A stretch of 33,435 nt of DNA from a candidate division WOR-3 bacterium (GCA_034722095.1 JAYENM010000339.1:1-33435); one strand, 5' to 3'. Shown: positions 3,941-31,116, numbered from the stretch's first letter. Program-made: numbers and translations. The notes: generated by a model from the sequence alone, not told the origin.

Positions 3941-3971
3941 AAGAAAAAAATTACATATCAAGGATTAAAAT

Positions 3972-4097
3972 CCTAAATTCTAAATTCGAAACTCTAAACA
4001 ATATCTAAATCCCAATTCTCCAATGTACTAAACAAGTTTGGGATTTATAATTTGGGGCATTAGAAATTGTTTAGGATTTAGGAATTATGATTTAGAA
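3972..4097. repeat. sucC-sucD spacer palindrome built from heptamer words
   Basis: The left arm is cctaaat|tctaaat|tcgaaac|tctaaac (3972-3999). The right arm is tttagga|tttagga|attatga|tttagaa (4070-4097). The inner 10-bp stem taaatcccaa/ttgggattta lies at about 4006-4047. Confidence 0.75.
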
Positions 4098-4129
4098 TTT
4101 TTGCATTTTGGTATTACTATGGGGGTTAT

Positions 4130-4996
4130 TTGAGTATCCTTATTAACGAAAATACACGGGTATGTGTCCAGGGGATAACTGGAAGGGATGGTTCATTTCA
4201 TACAGAGAAAATGGCTGAATATGGTACGAAGGTGGTATGTGGAGTGACACCCGGTAAAGGGGGAACAAACTTCTTAGATATTCCTGTGTATGATATGATG
4301 AAAGATGCTGTAAAGAAAGAAGGAGCGAATACAAGCATAATATTTGTTCCTGCAAAATTTGCGGTAGATGCCCTCTTTGAGACAGGAGATTCAGGAGTAA
4401 AGCTTGTTGTGTGCATAAGCGAAGGTATACCTGTGCTTGACATAGCAAAGGTATTAAAGTTTTACAGAGAAAGGGGGGTTATGCTTATAGGCCCAAATTC
4501 TCCTGGGCTTATATCACCGGGCAAGAGCAAGGTAGGTATTCTTCCCTCAAACATTTTTAAAAAGGGTAGTATCGGAGTTATATCAAGGAGTGGAACCCTC
4601 ACATACGAACTCGTTTCGCATATAACAAAATCAGGATTTGGAGAGTCAACCTGCATAGGTATAGGTGGAGATCCCCTGCTTGGGCTCAAGTTTATAGACT
4701 GTCTTAAACTATTTGAAGAAGACTCTGAGACAGATGCAATTCTTTTGGTCGGAGAAATCGGAGGACATGATGAGGAGGATGCAGCGGATTTTATAAGAGA
4801 TAATGTAAGCAAGCCTGTTGTTGCCTTTATGGCAGGAAAGACTGCGCCTCCTGGTAAGCGGATGGGGCATGCTGGTGCGATAATCTCTGGAGGGGCTGGA
4901 ACCGCAAAGGAGAAGATAGAGAAGTTTGAGAGCGTAGGGATTAGGGTTGCATCCGAACCCGAGGAGGTAGGAACTCTTTTTAAGGAACTTCTTTGA
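4130..4996 (+). CDS. sucD: succinate--CoA ligase alpha subunit
   Basis: 288-aa ORF with a TTG start behind a GGGGG SD. CoA-binding QGITGRDGSFHT and phosphohistidine loop MGHAGAIISGG. Confidence 0.95.
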   Translation: MSILINENTRVCVQGITGRDGSFHTEKMAEYGTKVVCGVTPGKGGTNFLDIPVYDMMKDAVKKEGANTSIIFVPAKFAVDALFETGDSGVKLVVCISEGIPVLDIAKVLKFYRERGVMLIGPNSPGLISPGKSKVGILPSNIFKKGSIGVISRSGTLTYELVSHITKSGFGESTCIGIGGDPLLGLKFIDCLKLFEEDSETDAILLVGEIGGHDEEDAADFIRDNVSKPVVAFMAGKTAPPGKRMGHAGAIISGGAGTAKEKIEKFESVGIRVASEPEEVGTLFKELL

Positions 4997-5001
4997 AGGA
5001 C

Positions 5002-5041
5002 TGAATCTAACCACAAAGTTCACAAAGAAAATCTAAAATCT
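5002..5041 (+). repeat. 40-nt gene-end module, copy 2
   Basis: tgaatctaaccacaaagttcacaaagaaaatctaaaatct. Positions 5010-5029 pair with 5049-5068 (18 of 20). Confidence 0.85.
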
Positions 5042-5080
5042 CTTGGTGTTCTTTGTGCCCTTTGTGGTGAAAAATGGACT

Positions 5081-5103
5081 GTAGGGCACGGTTTTAACCG
5101 TGC
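5081..5103 (+). repeat. REP-like element: GTAGG head plus palindrome GCACGGTT/AACCGTGC
   Basis: gtagggcacggttttaaccgtgc. 8-bp arms, downstream of sucD. Confidence 0.8.
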
Positions 5104-5129
5104 GAACATTACTTCTTTAACTTGCTATT

Positions 5130-5354
5130 ATGAAGAAATATACTATAAAAATAAATAAAGATTGGTGTAAAGGGTGCAACCTTTGTGTTGCTTTCTGTCC
5201 TCGTAATGTCCTTGCAATAGGAAAAGACAGGATGGCAGAGCCAGTGAAAGAAGATGACTGCACGGGATGCCTTGTTTGTGAATATAAATGCCCTGATTTT
5301 GCAATTACCGTAAACAGTTTCGAAGAATCTTGTAGAGTGAAAGTAAATAGATAG
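5130..5354 (+). CDS. 2x[4Fe-4S] ferredoxin, delta-subunit-like for 2-oxoacid:ferredoxin oxidoreductase
   Basis: 74-aa ORF with two CxxCxxCxxxCP motifs (CKGCNLCVAFCP, CTGCLVCEYKCP). Size and layout match the delta subunits of four-subunit 2-oxoacid:ferredoxin oxidoreductases. Confidence 0.8.
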   Translation: MKKYTIKINKDWCKGCNLCVAFCPRNVLAIGKDRMAEPVKEDDCTGCLVCEYKCPDFAITVNSFEESCRVKVNR

Positions 5355-5451
5355 AGAACCACAGATTCCACAGATTTAATTTATTTAGACTCTTCTTTAT
5401 ATGGATGTGATACTATTCGTTGGCTAACGGATGGCTGAAGAAGGAAAAACG

Positions 5452-6783
5452 ATGTCTTTGGTTTTACAGTTTATGATAATGGCAACATACTTCTCAGGAA
5501 TGTATCTTGGTGGTGAGAAGATCGGCTATACAATAATAGATACGAAACCTACAGAAAGTGGATATATTTTAAAGGAGATAGTGTTTATAAGACTTGGTAT
5601 GATGGGAGCGAAGAGGACAATGGAGACGTCATCGGTGTATGAACTTGATAGGGGATACCGACTTAAAAAATTCTCATTTGAACTCGAATCGGAGACACAG
5701 AAAATCTCATCTAACGGAGAGATAAAAGAGCAAGAACTTATATACAGCGTGAAGACAGGAAATAGAGAGAGAAGTGAGAGAATAAAACTTGATGGGGATG
5801 TATATGTGTCCCAGTCAATCCCTTTTCTTGTTTCTACCTTAAGAAAGAACCTGTTGCTTTCCGTGTTTGACCCCACCATATTTGCAGTAAATCAGGCAAA
5901 GGTGAGTATAATAAAGGAGACAGGTGATTCTATAAAGATCGAGACAGAATTACTGGGGGCGAAATCAACAACCTGGGTGGGAAAGAATGGGGAGATACTA
6001 CGGTCAGAGGAACCTATGGGTATTCTGATGGTCAAAGAGAATAAGAAAAAGGCATTGGAGTTTGGAGAGACATCACCTGAGATACTCACTATGTTTGCAA
6101 TACCCGCAGGTATGGAGATAAAAAATCCCAGGCAGGTAACCTATCTTAAGGCAATAGTAAAGGGTAGATTCAAAGAGACAGAAAGGCAGAAACTCTCCGA
6201 CGATACACTCACGATTGAAAGTATTGGACCTGATGAGGGAATAAGAACAATACCTGCAAGGGGATTTGGATGCAACAGAGCAAAACCGCAACCGGTTCCT
6301 GAAGAACTAAAGAGATACCTTGAAGATACTCCTCTTATCCAGGTAAGCGACAGAAAGATAAAGAGTAAATCCAACCAGATAGTGAAAGGCGCAAAAGATG
6401 AATGGGACAGGGTAAAGAAACTTGTCTCCTGGATAGATAAGAATGTAAAGGATTTTCCATCTGCGACAATTCCAAGTGCTGTTGATGTTCTGAAAACACT
6501 TGAAGGTGACTGTAATGAACACGCTGTCTTTTTCTGTGCCCTCTCAAGGGCGGCAGGGATTCCTGCGGATATATGTGTAGGTCTGGTTCTGATGGATGGA
6601 TATTTTTATTACCATGCCTGGAATAAGGTATGGGTGGGAAGATGGGTCGAGGTGGACCCGACTTTCAATCAGATAATAGCAGACGCCACACATATTACAC
6701 TTGAAGAGGGTGGACTCAAGGATTGGGCAAAGATAATGGACCTTATTGGAAATATTGAGATAAAGGTAGTAGAGTATAGATGA
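5452..6783 (+). CDS. transglutaminase-like superfamily protein with N-terminal hydrophobic anchor
   Basis: The track ORF is 5431..6783. The ATG at 5452 is preferred (GAAGGA SD 6 nt upstream). C-terminal transglutaminase-like core: GDCNEHAVFF (Cys), YYHAWN (His), VEVDPT (Asp). Confidence 0.8.
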   Translation: MSLVLQFMIMATYFSGMYLGGEKIGYTIIDTKPTESGYILKEIVFIRLGMMGAKRTMETSSVYELDRGYRLKKFSFELESETQKISSNGEIKEQELIYSVKTGNRERSERIKLDGDVYVSQSIPFLVSTLRKNLLLSVFDPTIFAVNQAKVSIIKETGDSIKIETELLGAKSTTWVGKNGEILRSEEPMGILMVKENKKKALEFGETSPEILTMFAIPAGMEIKNPRQVTYLKAIVKGRFKETERQKLSDDTLTIESIGPDEGIRTIPARGFGCNRAKPQPVPEELKRYLEDTPLIQVSDRKIKSKSNQIVKGAKDEWDRVKKLVSWIDKNVKDFPSATIPSAVDVLKTLEGDCNEHAVFFCALSRAAGIPADICVGLVLMDGYFYYHAWNKVWVGRWVEVDPTFNQIIADATHITLEEGGLKDWAKIMDLIGNIEIKVVEYR

Positions 6784-6831
6784 TAGTTGGTTAGTTAGTT
6801 TGTTAGTTGGATAGTTGGTTAGTTTGTTAGA
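6784..6831 (+). repeat. phase-locked degenerate octamer array (TAGTTGGT-type words, 6 units)
   Basis: tagttggt|tagttagt|ttgttagt|tggatagt|tggttagt|ttgttaga. The same words occur at 15871-15897 and, reverse-complemented, at 15905-15945, 21951-21977 and 26157-26191. Confidence 0.8.
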
Positions 6832-6871
6832 TGTGTGATTGGTTTTTGCATTTTGATTTTTTTCATGATGC

Positions 6872-7624: not shown

Positions 7625-7635
7625 AGAGGGTAAAT

Positions 7636-7779
7636 TAGGTCATTTGGTAATTTGGTAATTAAGTCATTAGGTAATTAGGTCATTGGGCTATCAAGCTATT
7701 AGGTAATTAGGTTATTGACGCAACGACGCTAAGACGCAATGACCCAATAACTTAAGTATATCAGTGTAAACCTGCGTCA
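7636..7779 (+). repeat. phase-locked degenerate octamer array, 18 units without indels
   Basis: taggtcat|ttggtaat|ttggtaat|taagtcat|taggtaat|taggtcat|tgggctat|caagctat|taggtaat|taggttat|tgacgcaa|cgacgcta|agacgcaa|tgacccaa|taacttaa|gtatatca|gtgtaaac|ctgcgtca. Confidence 0.8.
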
Positions 7780-7839: not shown

Positions 7840-7862
7840 GCACAAATTGAATTTGTGCCTAC
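7840..7862 (-). repeat. REP-like element (right half of an inverted doublet)
   Basis: gcacaaattgaatttgtgcctac on the plus strand, which is GTAGGCACAAATT..AATTTGTGC on the minus strand. Identical to 9987-10009. Confidence 0.8.
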
Positions 7863-7917
7863 AATCTCAATGACCTAATAACTCAATAACTTTAACATAT
7901 CTGTTTAATCAGTTGAT

Positions 7918-9926: not shown

Positions 9927-9986
9927 GAAAAGAAATAAAAAGAGCAGAGCTTAGCGTCTGCCTGTCCATACGGATCCTTCGGACTG

Positions 9987-10009
9987 GCACAAATTGAATT
10001 TGTGCCTAC
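9987..10009 (-). repeat. REP-like element
   Basis: 23 nt identical to 7840-7862. Confidence 0.8.
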
Positions 10010-10118
10010 AAAATAGTATCCAACTCGGGTTATTCCAATGCCTCAATTATGTCAAAACCGGCGGAAGGACTGATAGCGGATAAACCTGTCCCAAAAGAAC
10101 GGGTTGAAGCGGTGATAA

Positions 10119-15823: not shown

Positions 15824-15965
15824 ACCCTATACGAAAATTAAAAATCAAAATGCAAAAATCAAAAAGGTATTTAGTTTGCTGGTTTGTTAGTTTGTTAAAA
15901 TCAAACCAACTATCAGCCTAACCAACTATCCAACCAACCAACTACTTCAGCCTTTTGGTATTCTA

Positions 15966-16793
15966 TCAGGATCTAATGCTCTTTGCCTTTTCTACAATCT
16001 CTTTCTCATATAACTCTGTGTACTCAGGTCTTAACACATTTAGAAATTCGCCTGTAAGTATCTTTTCGCCTATCTCTTCTTTCGTCTTGCCCTTTACCGC
16101 GCTTATACCAATCGTATTTTCTTTGAGCCACATAAAATTCTCAACAGGCGTTCTCATCTTATTTCTCCTTCCGTACGCAGTAGGGCAGGTAGAAAGCACA
16201 TCAACAACCGAAAATCCTTTGTGGAGAAGTGCTTTCTTTAGCAGTTTATCAAGTGCTGGCACATGGTATACGGTTCCCCTTGCAACATAGGACGCACCAC
16301 AACCTATTGCGAGTTCAACTATATCAAATGGAGGCTCTACAGCCCCATAAGGAGCGGTCGAGGCAAAGCTACCACGAGGAGTCGTCGGAGAAGCCTGTCC
16401 CCCTGTCATTCCGTAGATGTAGTTGTTACAAATGATGGCTGTGATATCTATATTTCTTCTTGCTGTGTGTATGAAGTGATTTCCACCTATTGCCACCGCA
16501 TCTCCATCCCCCATAACAACTATAACCTTTAGAGAAGGATTTGCAAGTTTTATGCCGGTTGCGAATGTGAGTGCCCTTCCATGCGTGGTATGGAGTGTAT
16601 GACAGTCAACATACCCGGGCATTCTCCCGCAGCACCCGATTCCCGAAATCATACACACTTCGTCCTTCTTCCATCCAATACTATCTACTGCTCGGAGAAT
16701 GGATGCAAGGGCTATCCCATGCCCACACCCGGAGCACCATATAAACGGAAGTTTTTTCTTTCTTATGTAATTAATCGCAATCTCAGTCTTCAT
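15966..16793 (-). CDS. 2-oxoacid:ferredoxin oxidoreductase beta (TPP-binding) subunit
   Basis: 275-aa ORF. WCSGCGHG near the N-terminus and a TPP-binding GDGDAVAIGGNH motif. Confidence 0.92.
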   Translation of the reverse strand: MKTEIAINYIRKKKLPFIWCSGCGHGIALASILRAVDSIGWKKDEVCMISGIGCCGRMPGYVDCHTLHTTHGRALTFATGIKLANPSLKVIVVMGDGDAVAIGGNHFIHTARRNIDITAIICNNYIYGMTGGQASPTTPRGSFASTAPYGAVEPPFDIVELAIGCGASYVARGTVYHVPALDKLLKKALLHKGFSVVDVLSTCPTAYGRRNKMRTPVENFMWLKENTIGISAVKGKTKEEIGEKILTGEFLNVLRPEYTELYEKEIVEKAKSIRS

Positions 16794-16842
16794 ACAATTC
16801 AGTTACAGAGCATATCAGAAGACCAGTGTATCGGTTCGACTG

Positions 16843-16864
16843 AGCTCACCGAAGGCTCACCGAA
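16843..16864 (+). repeat. perfect tandem duplication of the 11-mer GCTCACCGAAG
   Basis: gctcaccgaag gctcaccgaag. Confidence 0.85.
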
Positions 16865-16907
16865 GTCAGTGGGCAGAATGTCAGAACAGACTGGTAGTCG
16901 GTAATCG

Positions 16908-17186
16908 GTTATCAGTAATCGGTAAATTCCAAGGCGTATCAGAATATCAGCAGATCAGTCCATACGGATCCGTAGGGATAGGCAGAATATCAGGATACCA
17001 GAAGATCAGGCAGCCTGATGCTCTGATATACTGATACCCTCCCGACTGATATTCTGATCTCCCGATATACTCGTCATGTTATGCTTCCTACTGATATTCT
17101 GATCGTCGGATACACTTGTTTTTCCTGACCACTGATGACCAATCACTGATTACCTGCTCCGCTGGTATCCTTCCTACTAATAATCT
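16908..17186 (+). repeat. copy A of a ~280-bp structured non-coding element (between the oxidoreductase beta and alpha genes)
   Basis: Hand alignment to 30474-30751 shows about 15 differences in ~270 nt. The interior is built of ATCAG/CTGAT octamer triplets in nested inverted arrangement plus the palindrome TACGGATCCGTA (16963-16974). Confidence 0.9.
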
Positions 17187-17211
17187 AATTCGCTAATGCA
17201 CTTATCCTACC

Positions 17212-17382
17212 GGTTTATCGCAACTGGAACAGGCTGTACAAAAACAACAGTGCAGCAAGTTGGAGTTAATCCGTAAGGATTTTAGATAAAAGGCTTACGC
17301 CTTAACTCCATCACAATCCGGTTTATCGCAACCACGGAAGGGTGTTCCTACCCTGACCCTACACTATAAGGTTTATCGCAAC
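17212..17382 (+). repeat. three copies of the 13-mer GGTTTATCGCAAC (17212, 17320, 17370)
   Basis: Exact 13-nt matches at three positions with irregular spacing (108 and 50 nt). Confidence 0.85.
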
Positions 17383-17395
17383 CGGGAGGTTGCTC

Positions 17396-18493
17396 CTACA
17401 TAGATATATTGTGTAATATCTCTTCAGGTGTAATTATTGTGCCATCTGCCTTTCCAATAAACCTAACATCGCATTCTGATGCACGCTCAACCTCTCTCAC
17501 AATCTGACCAAGATTCATCTCACAAACATATATCATATCTACCTTCTTTGATAATTTCTTTACTTCTCCATATGGAAACGGCCATAACGTAATTGGTCTT
17601 ACAAATCCTATTCTTTCTCCCTTTTTTCTTATTTCGTTTACAACCCTCAAACTACTCCTCGAGGTTGAGCCATACGAAAATATACAGATTTTGGCATCAT
17701 CCATAAACCTTACATCTAAATCCCTTACATCTGCTTCTTTTATCTTGGTTGCAAGCCTTTGCTGGAGTTTTTGAACCTTTTCTGGATTTGATGTTGGGAA
17801 TCCTGTTTCATCATGCGCAAGACCTGTTATGTGAAACCTGTAACCTCTACCGTACGGAGCGAGTGGTGGGACATCGTATCTTGAATCAAATGGAAGATAT
17901 TCTTGCGGCGGGACATTTGGGAAGCCCCTCTCTAATACTTCTATACTTGTATCTAATTCCACTTTCTCTCTCAGGTGTGCAAGAATCTCATCCGAAAGAA
18001 GGATGACTGGTGTTCTGTATTTTTCAGAGTAGTTAAATGCCCTGATTGTAAGAGAGTAGCATTCCCGGACAGAGAACGGTGTAAGAACTATTATTGGATG
18101 GTCACCATGTGTACCCCATCTTGATTGCATGGCGTCGCCCTGTGATGGGTAGGTGGGAAGACCCGTCGAAGGTCCCCCTCTCTGGACATCAACTATCACA
18201 CAGGGAATCTCTCCCATAGCAGCAAATCCTATGTGTTCTTGCATCAGGGAGAGGCCAGGGCCTGACGTTGCTGTCATAGATTTTATACCTGTGAGGGAAG
18301 CACCAAGGCAGGCGCCAAGACTTGCAATTTCGTCTTCCATCTGGATGAATTTTCCTCCCAGGGTCGGGAGTCGGAGGGACATAAGTTCTGCTATATCAGA
18401 GGATGGTGTAATAGGATAACCACCAAAGAATCTACATTTAGAGGCAAGTGCTCCTTCTACAATTGCCTCATTACCTGAGAGAAGCAAAGGCAT
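17396..18493 (-). CDS. 2-oxoacid:ferredoxin oxidoreductase alpha subunit (KorA/OorA-like)
   Basis: 365-aa ORF. N-terminal GNEAIVEGA...GGYPITPSS motif of alpha subunits. The ATG lies 1 nt after the rplQ stop. Confidence 0.92.
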   Translation of the reverse strand: MPLLLSGNEAIVEGALASKCRFFGGYPITPSSDIAELMSLRLPTLGGKFIQMEDEIASLGACLGASLTGIKSMTATSGPGLSLMQEHIGFAAMGEIPCVIVDVQRGGPSTGLPTYPSQGDAMQSRWGTHGDHPIIVLTPFSVRECYSLTIRAFNYSEKYRTPVILLSDEILAHLREKVELDTSIEVLERGFPNVPPQEYLPFDSRYDVPPLAPYGRGYRFHITGLAHDETGFPTSNPEKVQKLQQRLATKIKEADVRDLDVRFMDDAKICIFSYGSTSRSSLRVVNEIRKKGERIGFVRPITLWPFPYGEVKKLSKKVDMIYVCEMNLGQIVREVERASECDVRFIGKADGTIITPEEILHNISM

Positions 18494-18494
18494 A

Positions 18495-18884
18495 CTATTC
18501 TTCTTTTGGCTTTCTTCTCATCACCTTTTCCATATCTACCAGTTCCAACATACAGATATTGGCACCGTCTCCTTTTCTCTGGCCAAGACTGAGAATCCTT
18601 GTGTATCCGCCGTTCCTATTCTTATATACAGGGGCTATCTCATCCCACACTTTTTTAACAGTTTTTTTATCTCCTGTGAGAGAGTAGGCAAGTCTCCTGG
18701 AGTGGAGATCACCCTTCTTGGAGAGGGTGACGATCTTTTCGGCAAGAAGTCTCACCCTCTTCGCCTTTTCATTAGTCGTCTTTATAGAATGATGGGTAAA
18801 GAGAGATATCACAAGACTTTTTAGCATTGCATCCCGTTTTTGCTTTTCTCTTCCCAATTTTGCGATTTTGGAACGGTGTCTCAT
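18495..18884 (-). CDS. rplQ: 50S ribosomal protein L17
   Basis: 129-aa ORF starting MRHRSKIAKLGR. Overlaps the rpoA stop (ATGA). Canonical position after rpoA. Confidence 0.95.
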   Translation of the reverse strand: MRHRSKIAKLGREKQKRDAMLKSLVISLFTHHSIKTTNEKAKRVRLLAEKIVTLSKKGDLHSRRLAYSLTGDKKTVKKVWDEIAPVYKNRNGGYTRILSLGQRKGDGANICMLELVDMEKVMRRKPKEE

Positions 18885-19843: not shown

Positions 19844-19949
19844 TCCTACCCCCTATAGATGTAAATATTGTGTATAGTATTAACCACAGAGGACAAAAAT
19901 TTAAAAATTAAATATCAAAATGACAAACCAAAAATCCAAAAGGGCCACG

Positions 19950-19968
19950 CCTGCCTGCCGCAGGCAGG
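19950..19968. repeat. CCTGCC..GGCAGG core hairpin at the centre of the rpoA-rpsD spacer
   Basis: cctgcctgc c gcaggcagg. The spacer also has 11-bp perfect outer arms at 19881-19891 and 20047-20057 (aaccacagagg/cctctgtggtt). Confidence 0.75.
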
Positions 19969-20079
19969 GATTTCACTGATAAAAAATATTTCAATCTGTG
20001 AAAATCTGTGTAATCTGTGGTTATGATTTTTGATTTATCTCTGCGACCTCTGTGGTTTTTTCATATGGTTTTTACAAAG

Positions 20080-21073: not shown

Positions 21074-21225
21074 TTAACCCCCCCACCGTAATTTCAAAAT
21101 CCAAATACCCAATTTCCAACAAAATTCCAAAACCCCAATGCTAACTTAAGCACACCTCATTTTTCTGATATTTGACATTTGATATTTTATTGGAAATTTG
21201 CAATTGGAAATTAGACATTTATTTT

Positions 21226-24728: not shown

Positions 24729-24748
24729 CCTGCCTCCCGTCAGGCAGG
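24729..24748. repeat. CCTGCC..GGCAGG core hairpin in the rplO-rpmD spacer
   Basis: cctgcct cccgtc aggcagg, nearly identical to 57-76. Confidence 0.75.
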
Positions 24749-24851
24749 CAAATTACAAATAACAAATCTCAAGATCCGTATGGACAATATTTAAATCTCA
24801 ATAACCTAAATTCTAAGCTCTAATTTGGTTTGAACTTAAAAAATAAGTTAC

Positions 24852-25549: not shown

Positions 25550-25776
25550 AATACCCCCGGTAAACAAAATCAAAAATCAAATTTCAAAAATCAAAATTAT
25601 AGCCACAGATTAAAGCGACTTCAAAAATTCTAAATAACAATTACTAAATCTGCAGAGTCCTGCGGACAATATCTAAATCCCAATTTTTCAAATTCCAAAC
25701 CAACTGTTCTTGTTTGGAACATTTGAATTTATAACTTAGAATTTGTTTAGAATTTCGGATTTAGAATTTAGGATTT

Positions 25777-27437: not shown

Positions 27438-27531
27438 AACCCCCCTTGCAGTTGAGTAATTAGGTTATAAGGTAATTAGGTAATTAACTGTTTAGTCCCT
27501 TAAATGACCCAATGACGCAATGACTCAATAT

Positions 27532-29754: not shown

Positions 29755-30384
29755 TTATATTTCTACATTGCCCTTGTATATCCAGACTTTTACCCCGACA
29801 ACGCCAGAGATAGTTTTTGAAGGTATATAAGAATAATCAAGATCTGCCCTGAGTGTTTGAAGTGGCACCCTGCCCTCTCTATACCATTCGTTCCTGGCAA
29901 TCTCTGCCCCGCCGAGTCTCCCCTTGCACATTACCTTTATACCCAATGCACCCATACGTATAGCCTGCTGTACAGCCCGTTTCATAGCCCTCCTATGGGA
30001 CACTCTCTCCTCTATTTGTCTTGCTATGTTCTGAGCAACAATTCTGGCATCTGTCTCAGGCACTTTTACCTCTTCTATATTTATATAAACATCCTTGCTC
30101 TTGGTTAAAAATGCAAGTTCATTTTTGAGCCTTTCGACCTCTACTCCTTTCCTGCCTATTATAATTCCAGGTCTTGCACTATATATTGTAATTGTGAGTT
30201 TTGCCTCAGTTCGTTCTATCTCTACATCTGATATTGCTGCACGTACGAATCTCTTCTCAATATATTTTCTGATGGTGGCATCTTCTGTAATATACTCCTT
30301 GAATTTATTCTTTGTTATCCATCGAGACTTCCAGTTTTTGGTTATACCCAATCTAAAACCATACGGATGTGTCTTTTGTCCCAC
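29755..30384 (-). CDS. rpsC: 30S ribosomal protein S3
   Basis: 209-aa ORF starting [14 protein letters not shown], with a KH domain. Confidence 0.96.
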
Positions 30385-30424: not shown

Positions 30425-30444
30425 CCTGCCTGACGGCAGTCAGG
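30425..30444. repeat. CCTGCC..CAGG core hairpin next to element copy B
   Basis: cctgcctgacggcagtcagg (one mismatch in the stem). Confidence 0.65.
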
Positions 30445-30473
30445 GAGACACTGAAATCACACATTGGTTACAG

Positions 30474-30751
30474 GTAATCACTAATCGGTAAATTCCAAGG
30501 CATATCAGGATATCAGTGGATCAATCCATACGGATCCGTAGGGATAGGCAGAGTATCAGGTTATCAGAAGATCAGGCAGCCTGATGCTCTGATATACTGA
30601 TACCCCCCGACTGATATTCTGATCTCCCGATATACTCGTCATGTTATGCTTCCTACTGATATTCTGATCGTCGGATACGCTTGTTTTTCCTGACCACTGA
30701 TGACCGATCACTGATTACCCGATCTGCTGGTTTCCTTCCTACTGATACTCT
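30474..30751 (+). repeat. copy B of the ~280-bp structured non-coding element (between rpsC and rplV)
   Basis: Same orientation as copy A. Identical runs correspond to 17001-17038 and 17042-17113 of copy A. Palindrome TACGGATCCGTA at 30529-30540. Confidence 0.9.
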
Positions 30752-30762
30752 TTTTCTCACGA

Positions 30763-31116
30763 TCACCGATTACTGCTAACCTCATCGGTAACCACACACT
30801 TAAGATGGCTGAATCTCCTGTGTATTATATCTCTTCTTCCCCTTGCTCTCGGATTGAGTCTTTTTAATCTAAAACTCTGTTCTACAATAACAGATTTAAT
30901 TATAGCATCTTTCTCGCTTATATCCTCCTCTTTTTTTACTTTTAAATTTGCATAAGCAGATTTAATAGCCTTTGCAACCAGATTTGTATGTGTAGAAGGA
31001 AGCTGTTGCATTGCAGCAAGCGCCTCTTCCACACTCATGCCACGGAGTGGAGACACAAGCCTCACAAGTTTTTTGGAGGAAATTCTCAGGTATTTCTGAT
31101 AGGCAAAGCTTTCCAT
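30763..31116 (-). CDS. rplV: 50S ribosomal protein L22
   Basis: 117-aa ORF with ...YLRISSKKLVRLVSPLRGMSVEEA. The last codons are made of spacer-repeat words (see findings). Confidence 0.94.
   Translation of the reverse strand: MESFAYQKYLRISSKKLVRLVSPLRGMSVEEALAAMQQLPSTHTNLVAKAIKSAYANLKVKKEEDISEKDAIIKSVIVEQSFRLKRLNPRARGRRDIIHRRFSHLKCVVTDEVSSNR

Follow-up and report, generated by a model that had tools for sequence, protein, structure and literature searches.

What kind of element can stand, almost unchanged, between the genes of two different operons in one genome? The question is raised by a 33,435-nt stretch of DNA from a candidate division WOR-3 bacterium (GCA_034722095.1, JAYENM010000339.1:1-33435; this whole stretch is called the window), in which a structured element of about 280 nt occurs once in the korA-korB spacer (copy A) and once in the rplV-rpsC spacer (copy B). 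Both copies are members of a dispersed, non-coding family of quasi-palindromic repeats, which we named the ATCAG-octad hairpin. The family acts as an exchangeable intergenic cassette: it is found in either orientation in the spacers of housekeeping operons, gains or loses units and modules, and is deleted or replaced between close strains. A first-pass annotation of the window had described the two copies as a near-identical pair in the same orientation. Exact alignment of copy A (16915-17186) with copy B (30481-30751) bore this out, giving 17 substitutions and one 1-nt indel in 272 columns (93.4% identity), close to the roughly 15 differences that had been estimated by hand. Local similarity extended in direct orientation over 16907-17186 and 30473-30751, and a repeat finder returned 16900-17191 versus 30466-30756. 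The unbroken identical runs, put at 38 and 72 nt beforehand, proved slightly longer, at 41 nt (16999-17039) and 73 nt (17041-17113). The substitutions had been said to cluster in the first ~75 nt; they instead fall into two groups, one at each end (nine in 16915-16998, eight in 17114-17186), and the centre (16999-17113) is invariant apart from the indel. The repeat search found no other repeat longer than 45 nt in the window. The annotation had proposed recent duplication or mobility. That the event was recent is supported by strains whose flanking genes are 97.6-99.2% identical to those of the window but which differ in the interior of the element at the rplV-rpsC site, and by empty korA-korB alleles; the copies are, however, not a two-copy oddity but part of a family that spans several phyla.

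The extent of the family was determined with a degenerate pattern for the right arm, TCCYACTGATNNNCTGATNNTCNGATA, for which we calculated a chance expectation of about 0.1. Run on species-representative genomes, it matched 40 loci: 6 in Stahlbacteria CSMAG_552, 13 in 'bacterium b2.sp2_bin.59', and the rest in Stahlbacteria CG08, WOR-3 RS_16_8, RS_17_14 and CSMAG_2245, an Omnitrophota metagenome-assembled genome (MAG), a PVC-group MAG, the complete 1.77-Mb chromosome OY969425.1 and several unclassified bins. The census as a whole comprises more than 40 intergenic loci in about 20 MAGs of WOR-3, Stahlbacteria, Omnitrophota and the PVC group, with at least 13 copies in one genome and a G+C content of the loci ranging from 33 to 61%. 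Control loci taken from other phyla, 510 kb in all, contained 0 arrays of three pentads at 8-nt phase, the hallmark described below, versus 1-5 in nearly every locus that had been recovered with an element pattern. The gene for ribosomal protein S1 lies 4 nt from the element in one locus (L130) and about 1.8 kb from it in another (L102); the two S1 proteins are 43% identical, which corresponds to phylum-level divergence. The first copies of a shorter form were recovered by means of short conserved words, namely L101 (the orthologous rpoA-rplQ-korA-[spacer]-korB locus of WOR-3 RS_17_14), L095 (a different locus in the CSMAG_552 MAG) and L102 (on a JGI metagenome contig). A 19-nt 'head' pattern gave mostly chance matches and the same three genuine copies, and a second CSMAG_552 locus (L109) came from a separate, later scan with a family pattern. 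No copy of the element was found in plasmid, phage and IMG/VR collections, and there is thus no sign of a plasmid or viral vector.

Some members of the family are elaborated. The 13 or more copies in b2.sp2_bin.59 (JBHIER01; L113, L120, L123, L128-L133, L135, L140, L142-L144) lie within a longer conserved unit, ...TATAGTATTACCAATAAAATCTTTGTTTTTTGTGCAAAGAAATTAAAGC-[hairpin]-ACTTATTCTCAAAGTGCGATTGCGGCTCTGCCGCGCTAGG; some of them have doubled arms, and some contain a further small palindrome, TTCACCCCGTGAGATAA...CTCACGGGGT, as a nested insert. At L116 (CAZMPJ010000001.1, element at 4866-5952), between ftsZ and the gene for GTP-dependent PEP carboxykinase, the arms are 975 nt apart and enclose a PF05635 '23S rRNA intervening sequence protein' gene (E = 4e-30) and an unknown open reading frame (ORF) of 155 aa. 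The association with PF05635 did not recur: the sole other PF05635-like match in the fetched loci was weak and lay about 1.2 kb from the element of L140.

The architecture of the element was derived from 23-24 non-redundant copies. The left half of the consensus reads AAGC-(N)ATCAG NNN ATCAG NNN ATCAG - TAGG[C/A]AG[A/G]NT - ATCAG NNT A[T/C]CAG NNT ATCAG, and the right half, after a centre of 3-75 nt, reads CTGAT NNN CTGAT NNN CTGAT - A(T)TCTTCC[C/T]A - CTGAT NNN CTGAT NNT CTGAT-A[C/T][A/G]CT. The core of 107-180 nt thus consists of two 52-nt arms with six pentads each (ATCAG or CTGAT), arranged as two triplets around a TAGGMAG or CTTCCYA middle. The centre between the arms is variable, accepts inserts and often includes a G+C-rich mini-hairpin. 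In folds, either strand, when single-stranded, forms a long hairpin in which 5-bp ATCAG:CTGAT helices alternate with 3x3 mismatched loops. For the two window copies, both strands folded into a long nested hairpin far better than shuffled sequences (z = -5.1, -4.3, -3.5), and on the transcribed strand copies A and B reached -107 and -98 kcal/mol, respectively (z = -5.1 and -3.5). The nested ATCAG/CTGAT stems and the side hairpin that the annotation had described were found again in these folds.

What the family conserves is sequence and not structure. The arms pair in exact register, 75% of cells being complementary versus 33-46% when the partner was slid by 1-3 columns. The pentads are near invariant and are paired in 90% of cells. 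The 3-nt spacers contain almost no information, and 19% of their cells pair. With each copy entered in one orientation, the outer spacers were complementary in 9% of cells (13/144) versus 22% expected from column composition, a suggestive depletion of pairing below chance. Compensatory covariation scored below all 500 shuffles, the helices being invariant ATCAG:CTGAT, so that the covariation check suggested with the original description gave a negative answer. Nor was there a wobble bias between strands, transition-type mismatches appearing as G·T rather than A·C 66 times on the plus and 60 times on the minus strand. The A-to-G change at 16943, earlier offered as a structural hint because it turns an A-T pair into a wobble, carries no information, since the position concerned is the single one in the spacers at which all members of the family have either G·T or A·T. 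The conserved feature is therefore a sequence word at fixed phase and not a helix maintained by compensation. That sequence rather than pairing is conserved points to a specific reader protein.

Genomic context was mixed. Every copy examined lies in a gene spacer. The genes on its two sides are co-directional in 15 cases, in 10 of which they run opposite to the canonical orientation of the element (8 loci and the 2 window copies) and in 5 in the same direction; they are convergent in 4 cases and divergent in 2. The occurrence of both orientations and of convergent and divergent settings argues against an operon-specific RNA role. No protein family recurred among the neighbors except at orthologous loci, the neighbors being housekeeping genes (rpsA, tsaD and ftsZ among them). 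Measured as a structured non-coding RNA family, the element had no match to a curated covariance model, no helices backed by covariation and a mixed orientation. Within the window, no match to Rfam was obtained at the gathering score, and at E <= 10 the two spacers yielded nothing beyond chance-level matches; tRNA and tmRNA scans gave no match. A consensus scan found no intrinsic terminator (G+C-rich stem plus T run) inside either element. Scans of the two window spacers found no promoter or terminator consensus in either, and the element is therefore probably transcribed together with the genes on both sides.

Pfam confirmed the gene settings that had been assigned to the two copies, and the pair is non-coding and located between co-directional genes; all surrounding genes are on the minus strand. 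Copy A separates the gene for a korA/porA-like alpha subunit (17396-18493) from that for a thiamine pyrophosphate (TPP)-binding beta subunit, korB (15966-16793), in the order rpoA-rplQ-korA(alpha)-[602 nt, copy A]-korB(beta)-korG(gamma). Copy B lies between rplV (30763-31116) and rpsC (29755-30384), in the order rplB-rpsS-rplV-[378 nt, copy B]-rpsC. The RpsC protein of the window is 100% identical to that of MAG GCA_030627085.1 ('Candidatus Stahlbacteria bacterium CSMAG_552') and 90% identical to that of WOR-3 bacterium JGI_Cruoil_03_44_89. As a separate observation, korA begins one base past rplQ (window 17396-18884), so that the genes for 2-oxoacid:ferredoxin oxidoreductase directly follow rpoA-rplQ; the same is seen in L101 and L149. 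Both window sites also carry ATCAG elements in the distant WOR-3 genome RS_17_14 (L101, L139). When the window is compared with L101, identity amounts to 75% in coding DNA and 51.5% at third codon positions, versus approximately 84-88% for the aligned spacer columns.

The positions given earlier for the ATCAG, TACGGATCCGTA, A[TC]CAG, CTGAT and C[TC]GAT motifs of copy A are all correct, and they can now be read against the family consensus. Oriented features are on the plus strand; the presence/absence unit, the inserted module and the interior tract of copy B have no assigned orientation. From left to right, copy A begins with an outer left stem of 7-nt period, GGTAGTC GGTAATC GGTTATC AGTAATC GGTAAAT (16891-16925; 16893-16925 in Tandem Repeats Finder), which pairs in folds with 17127-17155. 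The left outer triple pentad follows (ATCAG at 16938, 16946 and 16954; 16938-16958), with 8-nt phase, and then an inserted 20-nt palindromic module, TCCATACGGATCCGTAGGGA (16959-16978), which forms the side hairpin and contains the palindrome TACGGATCCGTA at 16963. The family middle motif TAGGCAGAAT precedes the left inner triple (ATCAG, ACCAG and ATCAG at 16989, 16997 and 17005; 16979-17009 in all). An extra set of three CTGAT (17015, 17023 and 17031; 17015-17035) pairs in folds with 16989-17009. The right inner triple comprises CTGAT, CTGAT and CCGAT (17046, 17054 and 17062; 17046-17066), and the family motif GCTTCCTA leads into the right outer triple (17082-17111), which matches the search pattern. 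Conserved ACACTTGTTTTTCCTGA, the outer right stem (CCACTGATGACCAATCACTGATTACC) and a tail common to copy B complete the element (17112-17186), as judged from alignments and folds. In copy B (30473-30751, between rplV and rpsC), triple pentads occupy 30504-30524, 30555-30575, 30581-30601, 30611-30631 and 30656-30676, and the 20-nt module occupies 30525-30544. The interior at 30510-30641, delimited by BLAST break points and alignments, is a candidate conversion or replacement tract.

Three derived features distinguish this long form, common to A and B, from the short form: the 20-nt module, the extra CTGAT triplet and approximately 25 further nucleotides in the centre. The module is missing from the aligned short-form copies L095, L101, L102 and L109; relatives of it occur at window 9965-9980 and 24769-24784, 6 matches being found versus 0.23 expected. 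ATCAGNNNATCAGNNNATCAG is present four times in the window versus 0.00 expected. The exact 33-nt core of the long form had no match in the genome contig collection, and the long form has so far been seen in the window only. The core is flanked by lineage-specific outer stems (the 7-nt GGTAATC-like array), which pair in WOR-3 copies. The remainder of the korA-korB spacer (17212-17382, plus strand) consists of separate modules, namely small hairpins and three copies of GGTTTATCGCAAC starting at 17212, 17320 and 17370. These copies (17212-17224, 17320-17332 and 17370-17382, versus 0.02 expected) each adjoin a small hairpin such as GCAACC-GGGA-GGTTGC, and the modules are partly kept in an alignment with the distant genome L101.

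Comparison with close relatives revealed rapid turnover at both sites. At the korA-korB site three alleles were found: the full element of the window, a spacer without 332 nt, and a spacer with a different hairpin family. Two independent assemblies of the same species, L147 (DAOUSS010000136.1) and L148 (JGI Ga0326329_1008903), have no counterpart of window 16830-17161, the presence/absence unit of copy A, and their junction reads ...AGACCAGTGT-AA-CTGGTATCC... (ACCAG-TGTAA-CTGGT). In L149, whose KorB is 97% identical, the spacer is 131 nt long (L149 2159-2289) and belongs to the hairpin family AACCGCAGAGTTCACAGAG...CTCTGTGAACTCTGTGGTT, which also occurs four times in the window. The members of this second family in the window, AACCACA[A/G]AG...CTCTGTGGTT, which in L149 replaces the ATCAG element, lie at approximately 150-225, 1330-1420, 5001-5070 and 19880-20060; 1330-1370 and 5001-5041 are 98% identical. 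At the rplV-rpsC site there are four alleles among close strains, whose flanks are 97.6-99.2% (L086, L087) or 95.5-99.0% (L089) identical to those of the window. L086, L087 and L089 retain the locus-specific flanks and the ends of the element and differ in the interior. In L086, with flanking genes 97.8-99.2% identical, window 30510-30641 is replaced by 34 unrelated nucleotides, and the replaced intervals are larger in L089 (30510-30659) and L087 (30495-30688). L090, L091 and L092 encode an identical RpsC protein but have unrelated DNA upstream of rpsC, an ATCGG/ATCAG-type hairpin in L091 and an AATTTGA-type region in L090 and L092, which is further evidence that the spacers turn over faster than the proteins.

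Taken together, the explanation that we favor, and regard as probable though well short of assured, is that the element is a sequence-recognized palindromic cassette of the REP/BIME/MITE kind, the interiors of whose two window copies were recently homogenized, and not an operon-specific riboregulator. The window genome would hold a derived long form, arisen from the short form by acquisition of the 20-nt palindromic module and the extra CTGAT triplet, which may have come to occupy two sites that were already occupied ancestrally. The interiors of A and B would then have been homogenized recently, by gene conversion or by replacement from a like copy. Such homogenization would explain an identity of 93% with an invariant centre; it is suggested by the absence of the long-form features at the same sites in relatives and by the overlap of the tract replaced at copy B with the invariant centre. 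The invariant phased pentads would be putative recognition sites for a sequence-specific protein, either a nucleic-acid-binding protein of the host or a mobilizing enzyme acting in trans, and the resulting hairpin may be at most a generic intercistronic structure rather than a regulator of a particular operon.

Several points weigh against this explanation. For spread by transposition, no transposase, target-site duplication or autonomous parent was found at the loci examined, and there was no transposase among the neighbor families recurring at two or more of the fetched 8-kb loci. The search for target-site duplications that had been recommended at the outset found none at the boundaries of the 332-nt indel (GTGT/ATCGG on the left and CTCCG/CTGG on the right, the slash marking the boundary) and none evident around the 13 copies in b2.sp2_bin.59; clean terminal repeats were not found at the indel boundaries either. 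All presence/absence alleles could have arisen by deletion and recombination at the hairpin. A real cellular function, instead of recognition by a mobilizing enzyme, could account for conservation that exceeds that of synonymous sites and extends across phyla. Gene conversion between A and B is a reading of the pattern of identity, and co-transcription and any RNA-level effect are predictions. The depletion of spacer pairing is suggestive and not proven because the copies are partly related, so that the effective sample is smaller than 24. Finally, the phylum names are the MAG labels as deposited, for which the S1 protein served as the one cross-check.

A more far-reaching proposal, to which we give only a minor chance, is that the family represents an undescribed cis-acting nucleic-acid signal shared across phyla, in which the pentads are read by a conserved multi-domain nucleic-acid-binding protein and the element is a functional module of housekeeping operons. 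The unpaired 3-nt spacers would then hold the six phased pentads of each arm apart. Candidate readers might be a protein with repeated OB folds, such as ribosomal protein S1, or a cooperative binder of tandem boxes, and the other hairpins with 7-8-nt arrays in the spacers of this lineage could be variants of the same system.

It is likewise possible, if unlikely, that the element functions as duplex DNA. A nucleoid-associated or regulatory protein would bind cooperatively to the twelve ATCAG/CTGAT sites, which form two converging sets in 8-bp phase, and the hairpin would be a by-product. This proposal overlaps with the favored one on recognition and places the function in chromosome organization or transcription; models could be proteins that recognize 7-8-bp boxes in tandem, or the 'global regulator' of IHF/HU type that has been put forward for paired sites of Geobacter. 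It accords with invariant pentads and free spacers, with the lack of covariation and of an orientation rule, with retention of the motif across a G+C range of 33-61% and with a spacer more conserved than synonymous sites, and the description of the paired hepta- and octanucleotide sites of G. metallireducens puts forward the same idea (Aklujkar et al. 2009, PMC2700814). It gives no reason, however, for the inversion of the arms around a centre that often includes a G+C-rich mini-hairpin or for spacer complementarity below chance; at both window sites there are close strains that do without the element, and no candidate protein was identified.

A functional RNA within the polycistronic mRNA, acting as a processing site, exonuclease barrier or translational uncoupler that sets the relative expression of rplV/rpsC and korA/korB, appears rather improbable. 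Both window copies do lie between co-directional genes in spacers lacking promoter and terminator consensus, the fold of the transcribed strand is very stable, and both sites are occupied in a distant relative. Most window spacers fold better than shuffled sequences (z = -2 to -10, versus 0 for control segments and coding DNA), and REP, ERIC and Correia elements affect mRNA expression or fate in other bacteria. An RNA role does not fit, however, with the lack of covariation and of a wobble strand bias, with the occurrence of both orientations and of convergent and divergent gene settings, or with the close strains in which the element is deleted or replaced at both sites; moreover, 3x3 mismatched loops every 5 bp would make a poor substrate for a double-strand-specific RNase.

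Still more doubtful is an inert mutational by-product, in which slippage would build the 7-8-nt arrays and template switching the palindromes with neither recognition nor function. An autocorrelation peak at lags 7 and 8 was indeed confined to the intergenic DNA of the window and absent from its coding DNA, being raised in all window spacers (0.33-0.36 versus 0.26), and there are many unrelated array families in the window and a fast turnover of alleles. Slippage duplicates whole units, yet here conservation is confined to the pentad and does not extend to the 3-nt spacers; pentad, phase and middle motif all stay the same at a G+C content of 33-61% and at phylum-level divergence, and spacer conservation exceeds that of synonymous sites.

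Short-read contigs from Logan (SRR26901925, SRR26901928) matched the window exactly on either side of the elements and ended at or inside them. The ends of contigs L001-L005 fall at window 15880, 16916, 17289, 26162, 30510 and 30649; apart from the elements, the ends at 15880 and 26162 coincide with octamer arrays and that at 17289 with the GGTTTATCGCAAC-repeat region. Breaks at the element are expected if the sequence is repeated in those samples. That the interior of one copy was filled from the other during metagenome assembly is scarcely credible: although these independent contigs do not cross the interior of either copy and the centres of A and B are identical for 115 nt apart from one indel, 18 positions differ, some inside the long-form part (beside the 20-nt module B has GGATCAATCC and A has AGATCAGTCC), copy B has family-consensus variants left of the centre that are missing in copy A, contig L003 runs approximately 100 nt into copy B with B-specific bases, and related elements are present at both sites in other genomes.

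The wider spacer architecture of the window was also recorded. Nearly every spacer is a hairpin with arrays of 7- or 8-nt units, among them AATTAGGT, TTAGTTGG/AACCAACT, AAAATCA, TTTAGGA/TCCTAAA, CACAGAG and AATGACCC; examples lie at 2690-2745, 3960-4105, 6784-6845, 7633-7750, 15871-15944, 21100-21225, 25660-25776 and 27450-27530. Small REP-like palindromes of the types CCTGCC-N-GGCAGG and (TAG)GCAC...GTGC recur in spacers at 57-80, 19950-19975, 24730-24750 and 30425-30445 and also at 1298-1322, 7840-7864 and 9987-10011, the last two being 100% identical over 25 nt. An apparent long spacer after sucD contains a 74-aa ORF (5130-5354, plus strand) with two CxxCxxCxxxCP motifs, which is probably the gene for a small 2x[4Fe-4S] ferredoxin.

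Bacteria commonly carry dispersed palindromic repeats, most of which are confined to a single genus and poorly understood. The ATCAG family is unusual in keeping one five-base word, an eight-base phase and a middle motif across phylum-level divergence and almost 30 points of G+C content, in conserving sequence while its spacers stay unpaired, and in residing within essential operons (the S10 ribosomal-protein operon and that of 2-oxoacid:ferredoxin oxidoreductase) while being swapped in and out between near-identical strains. It thus offers a workable handle on the function of such elements and on the turnover of intergenic DNA in uncultured lineages. At ribosomal-protein operons, short-read contigs end where these repeats lie; the repeats are likely to break assemblies there, and such breaks would affect the completeness of MAGs and the recovery of marker genes for these phyla.

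Which known systems does the family resemble? CRISPR or TIGR-like arrays were rejected for want of a spacer-repeat organization, and integron attC sites, riboswitches or leaders, and autoregulatory sites of ribosomal proteins were rejected as a misfit with a multi-locus element found in either orientation. The element is real and clearly delimited, and in a broad sense the family is of a known kind, that of dispersed intergenic palindromic repeats or paired tandem-repeat sites. Elements of the REP/BIME, BOX, ERIC and Correia/NEMIS families are likewise non-coding palindromes dispersed over intergenic DNA, often co-transcribed in operons, modular or mosaic, non-autonomous and variable between strains; some of the REP/BIME, BOX, ERIC and Correia elements are bound by host proteins or affect the fate of mRNA. 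These families are limited to a species or genus, REPs measure 20-40 nt, and Correia elements have TA duplications and defined terminal repeats. To our knowledge, none of them is built from a phased pentad array with mismatched spacers. The ATCAG element has no sequence similarity to them, and its family spans phyla; its core of 107-180 nt with 52-nt arms exceeds the imperfect palindrome of 20-40 nt that is the REP/BIME unit, and the small REP-like palindromes co-occur with it as separate modules.

With miniature inverted-repeat transposable elements (MITEs) the family shares inverted arms around a short variable centre, multiple copies, presence/absence polymorphism, nested insertions and the 975-nt cargo of L116. 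Its arms are inverted arrays that pair in register, in the manner of terminal inverted repeats, and two MAGs hold at least 13 and at least 6 copies, with an empty korA-korB allele in L147 and L148. Unlike MITEs, it showed neither target-site duplications nor clean terminal repeats at the indel boundaries; a parent with a transposase was not found at the loci examined, and the cargo of L116 encodes a PF05635 protein and not a transposase. The family resembles REP/BIME, BOX, ERIC, Correia elements and MITEs in behavior; of the features by which these are defined, unit size and target duplication set it apart, and a transposase parent was not found at those loci.

In the literature, no paper was found that describes repeats in WOR-3 or Stahlbacteria or the ATCAG-octad motif; two published repeat systems come closer than the rest. 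Beggiatoaceae, Cyanobacteria and Bacteroidetes have intergenic repeats of the heptamer TAACTGA, among other places within operons for ribosomal proteins and close to rpsA, and S1, Csp or CsrA-type proteins have been suggested to bind them (MacGregor 2015, PMC4679880). These and the cyanobacterial STRR (short tandemly repeated repetitive) sequences share with the ATCAG family short tandem intergenic units containing CTGA and a patchy distribution across phyla. They differ in that the entire heptamer is repeated head to tail, as a rule immediately before a start codon, and in that they lack a hairpin and an inverted partner array; the ATCAG family has a period of 8 nt, of which 5 positions are conserved, and its arrays form inverted pairs.

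The second system, of all published descriptions the closest, is that of the paired 'global regulator binding sites' (classes 1-3) of G. metallireducens, which are multicopy and intergenic and consist of 3-5 tandem units of 7-9 nt in two arrays on opposite strands at variable distance, one example lying between proB and proA, two genes of a single operon; they were proposed to bind global regulators of the IHF/HU type and are not known to have been characterized (Aklujkar et al. 2009, PMC2700814). As set out there, they differ from the ATCAG family in a period of 7 rather than 8 nt, in a different unit and in being reported from one genome, and a middle motif is not noted in the passages that deal with them. 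Set beside this published description, the likeness is one of architecture and of a YCTGA core: in the ATCAG family each arm has 3 + 3 units, the centre measures 3-75 nt and the loci number more than 40, and the class 3 units of Geobacter (CTCCTGA ATTCTGA ...) contain YCTGA, as does the CTGAT arm described here.

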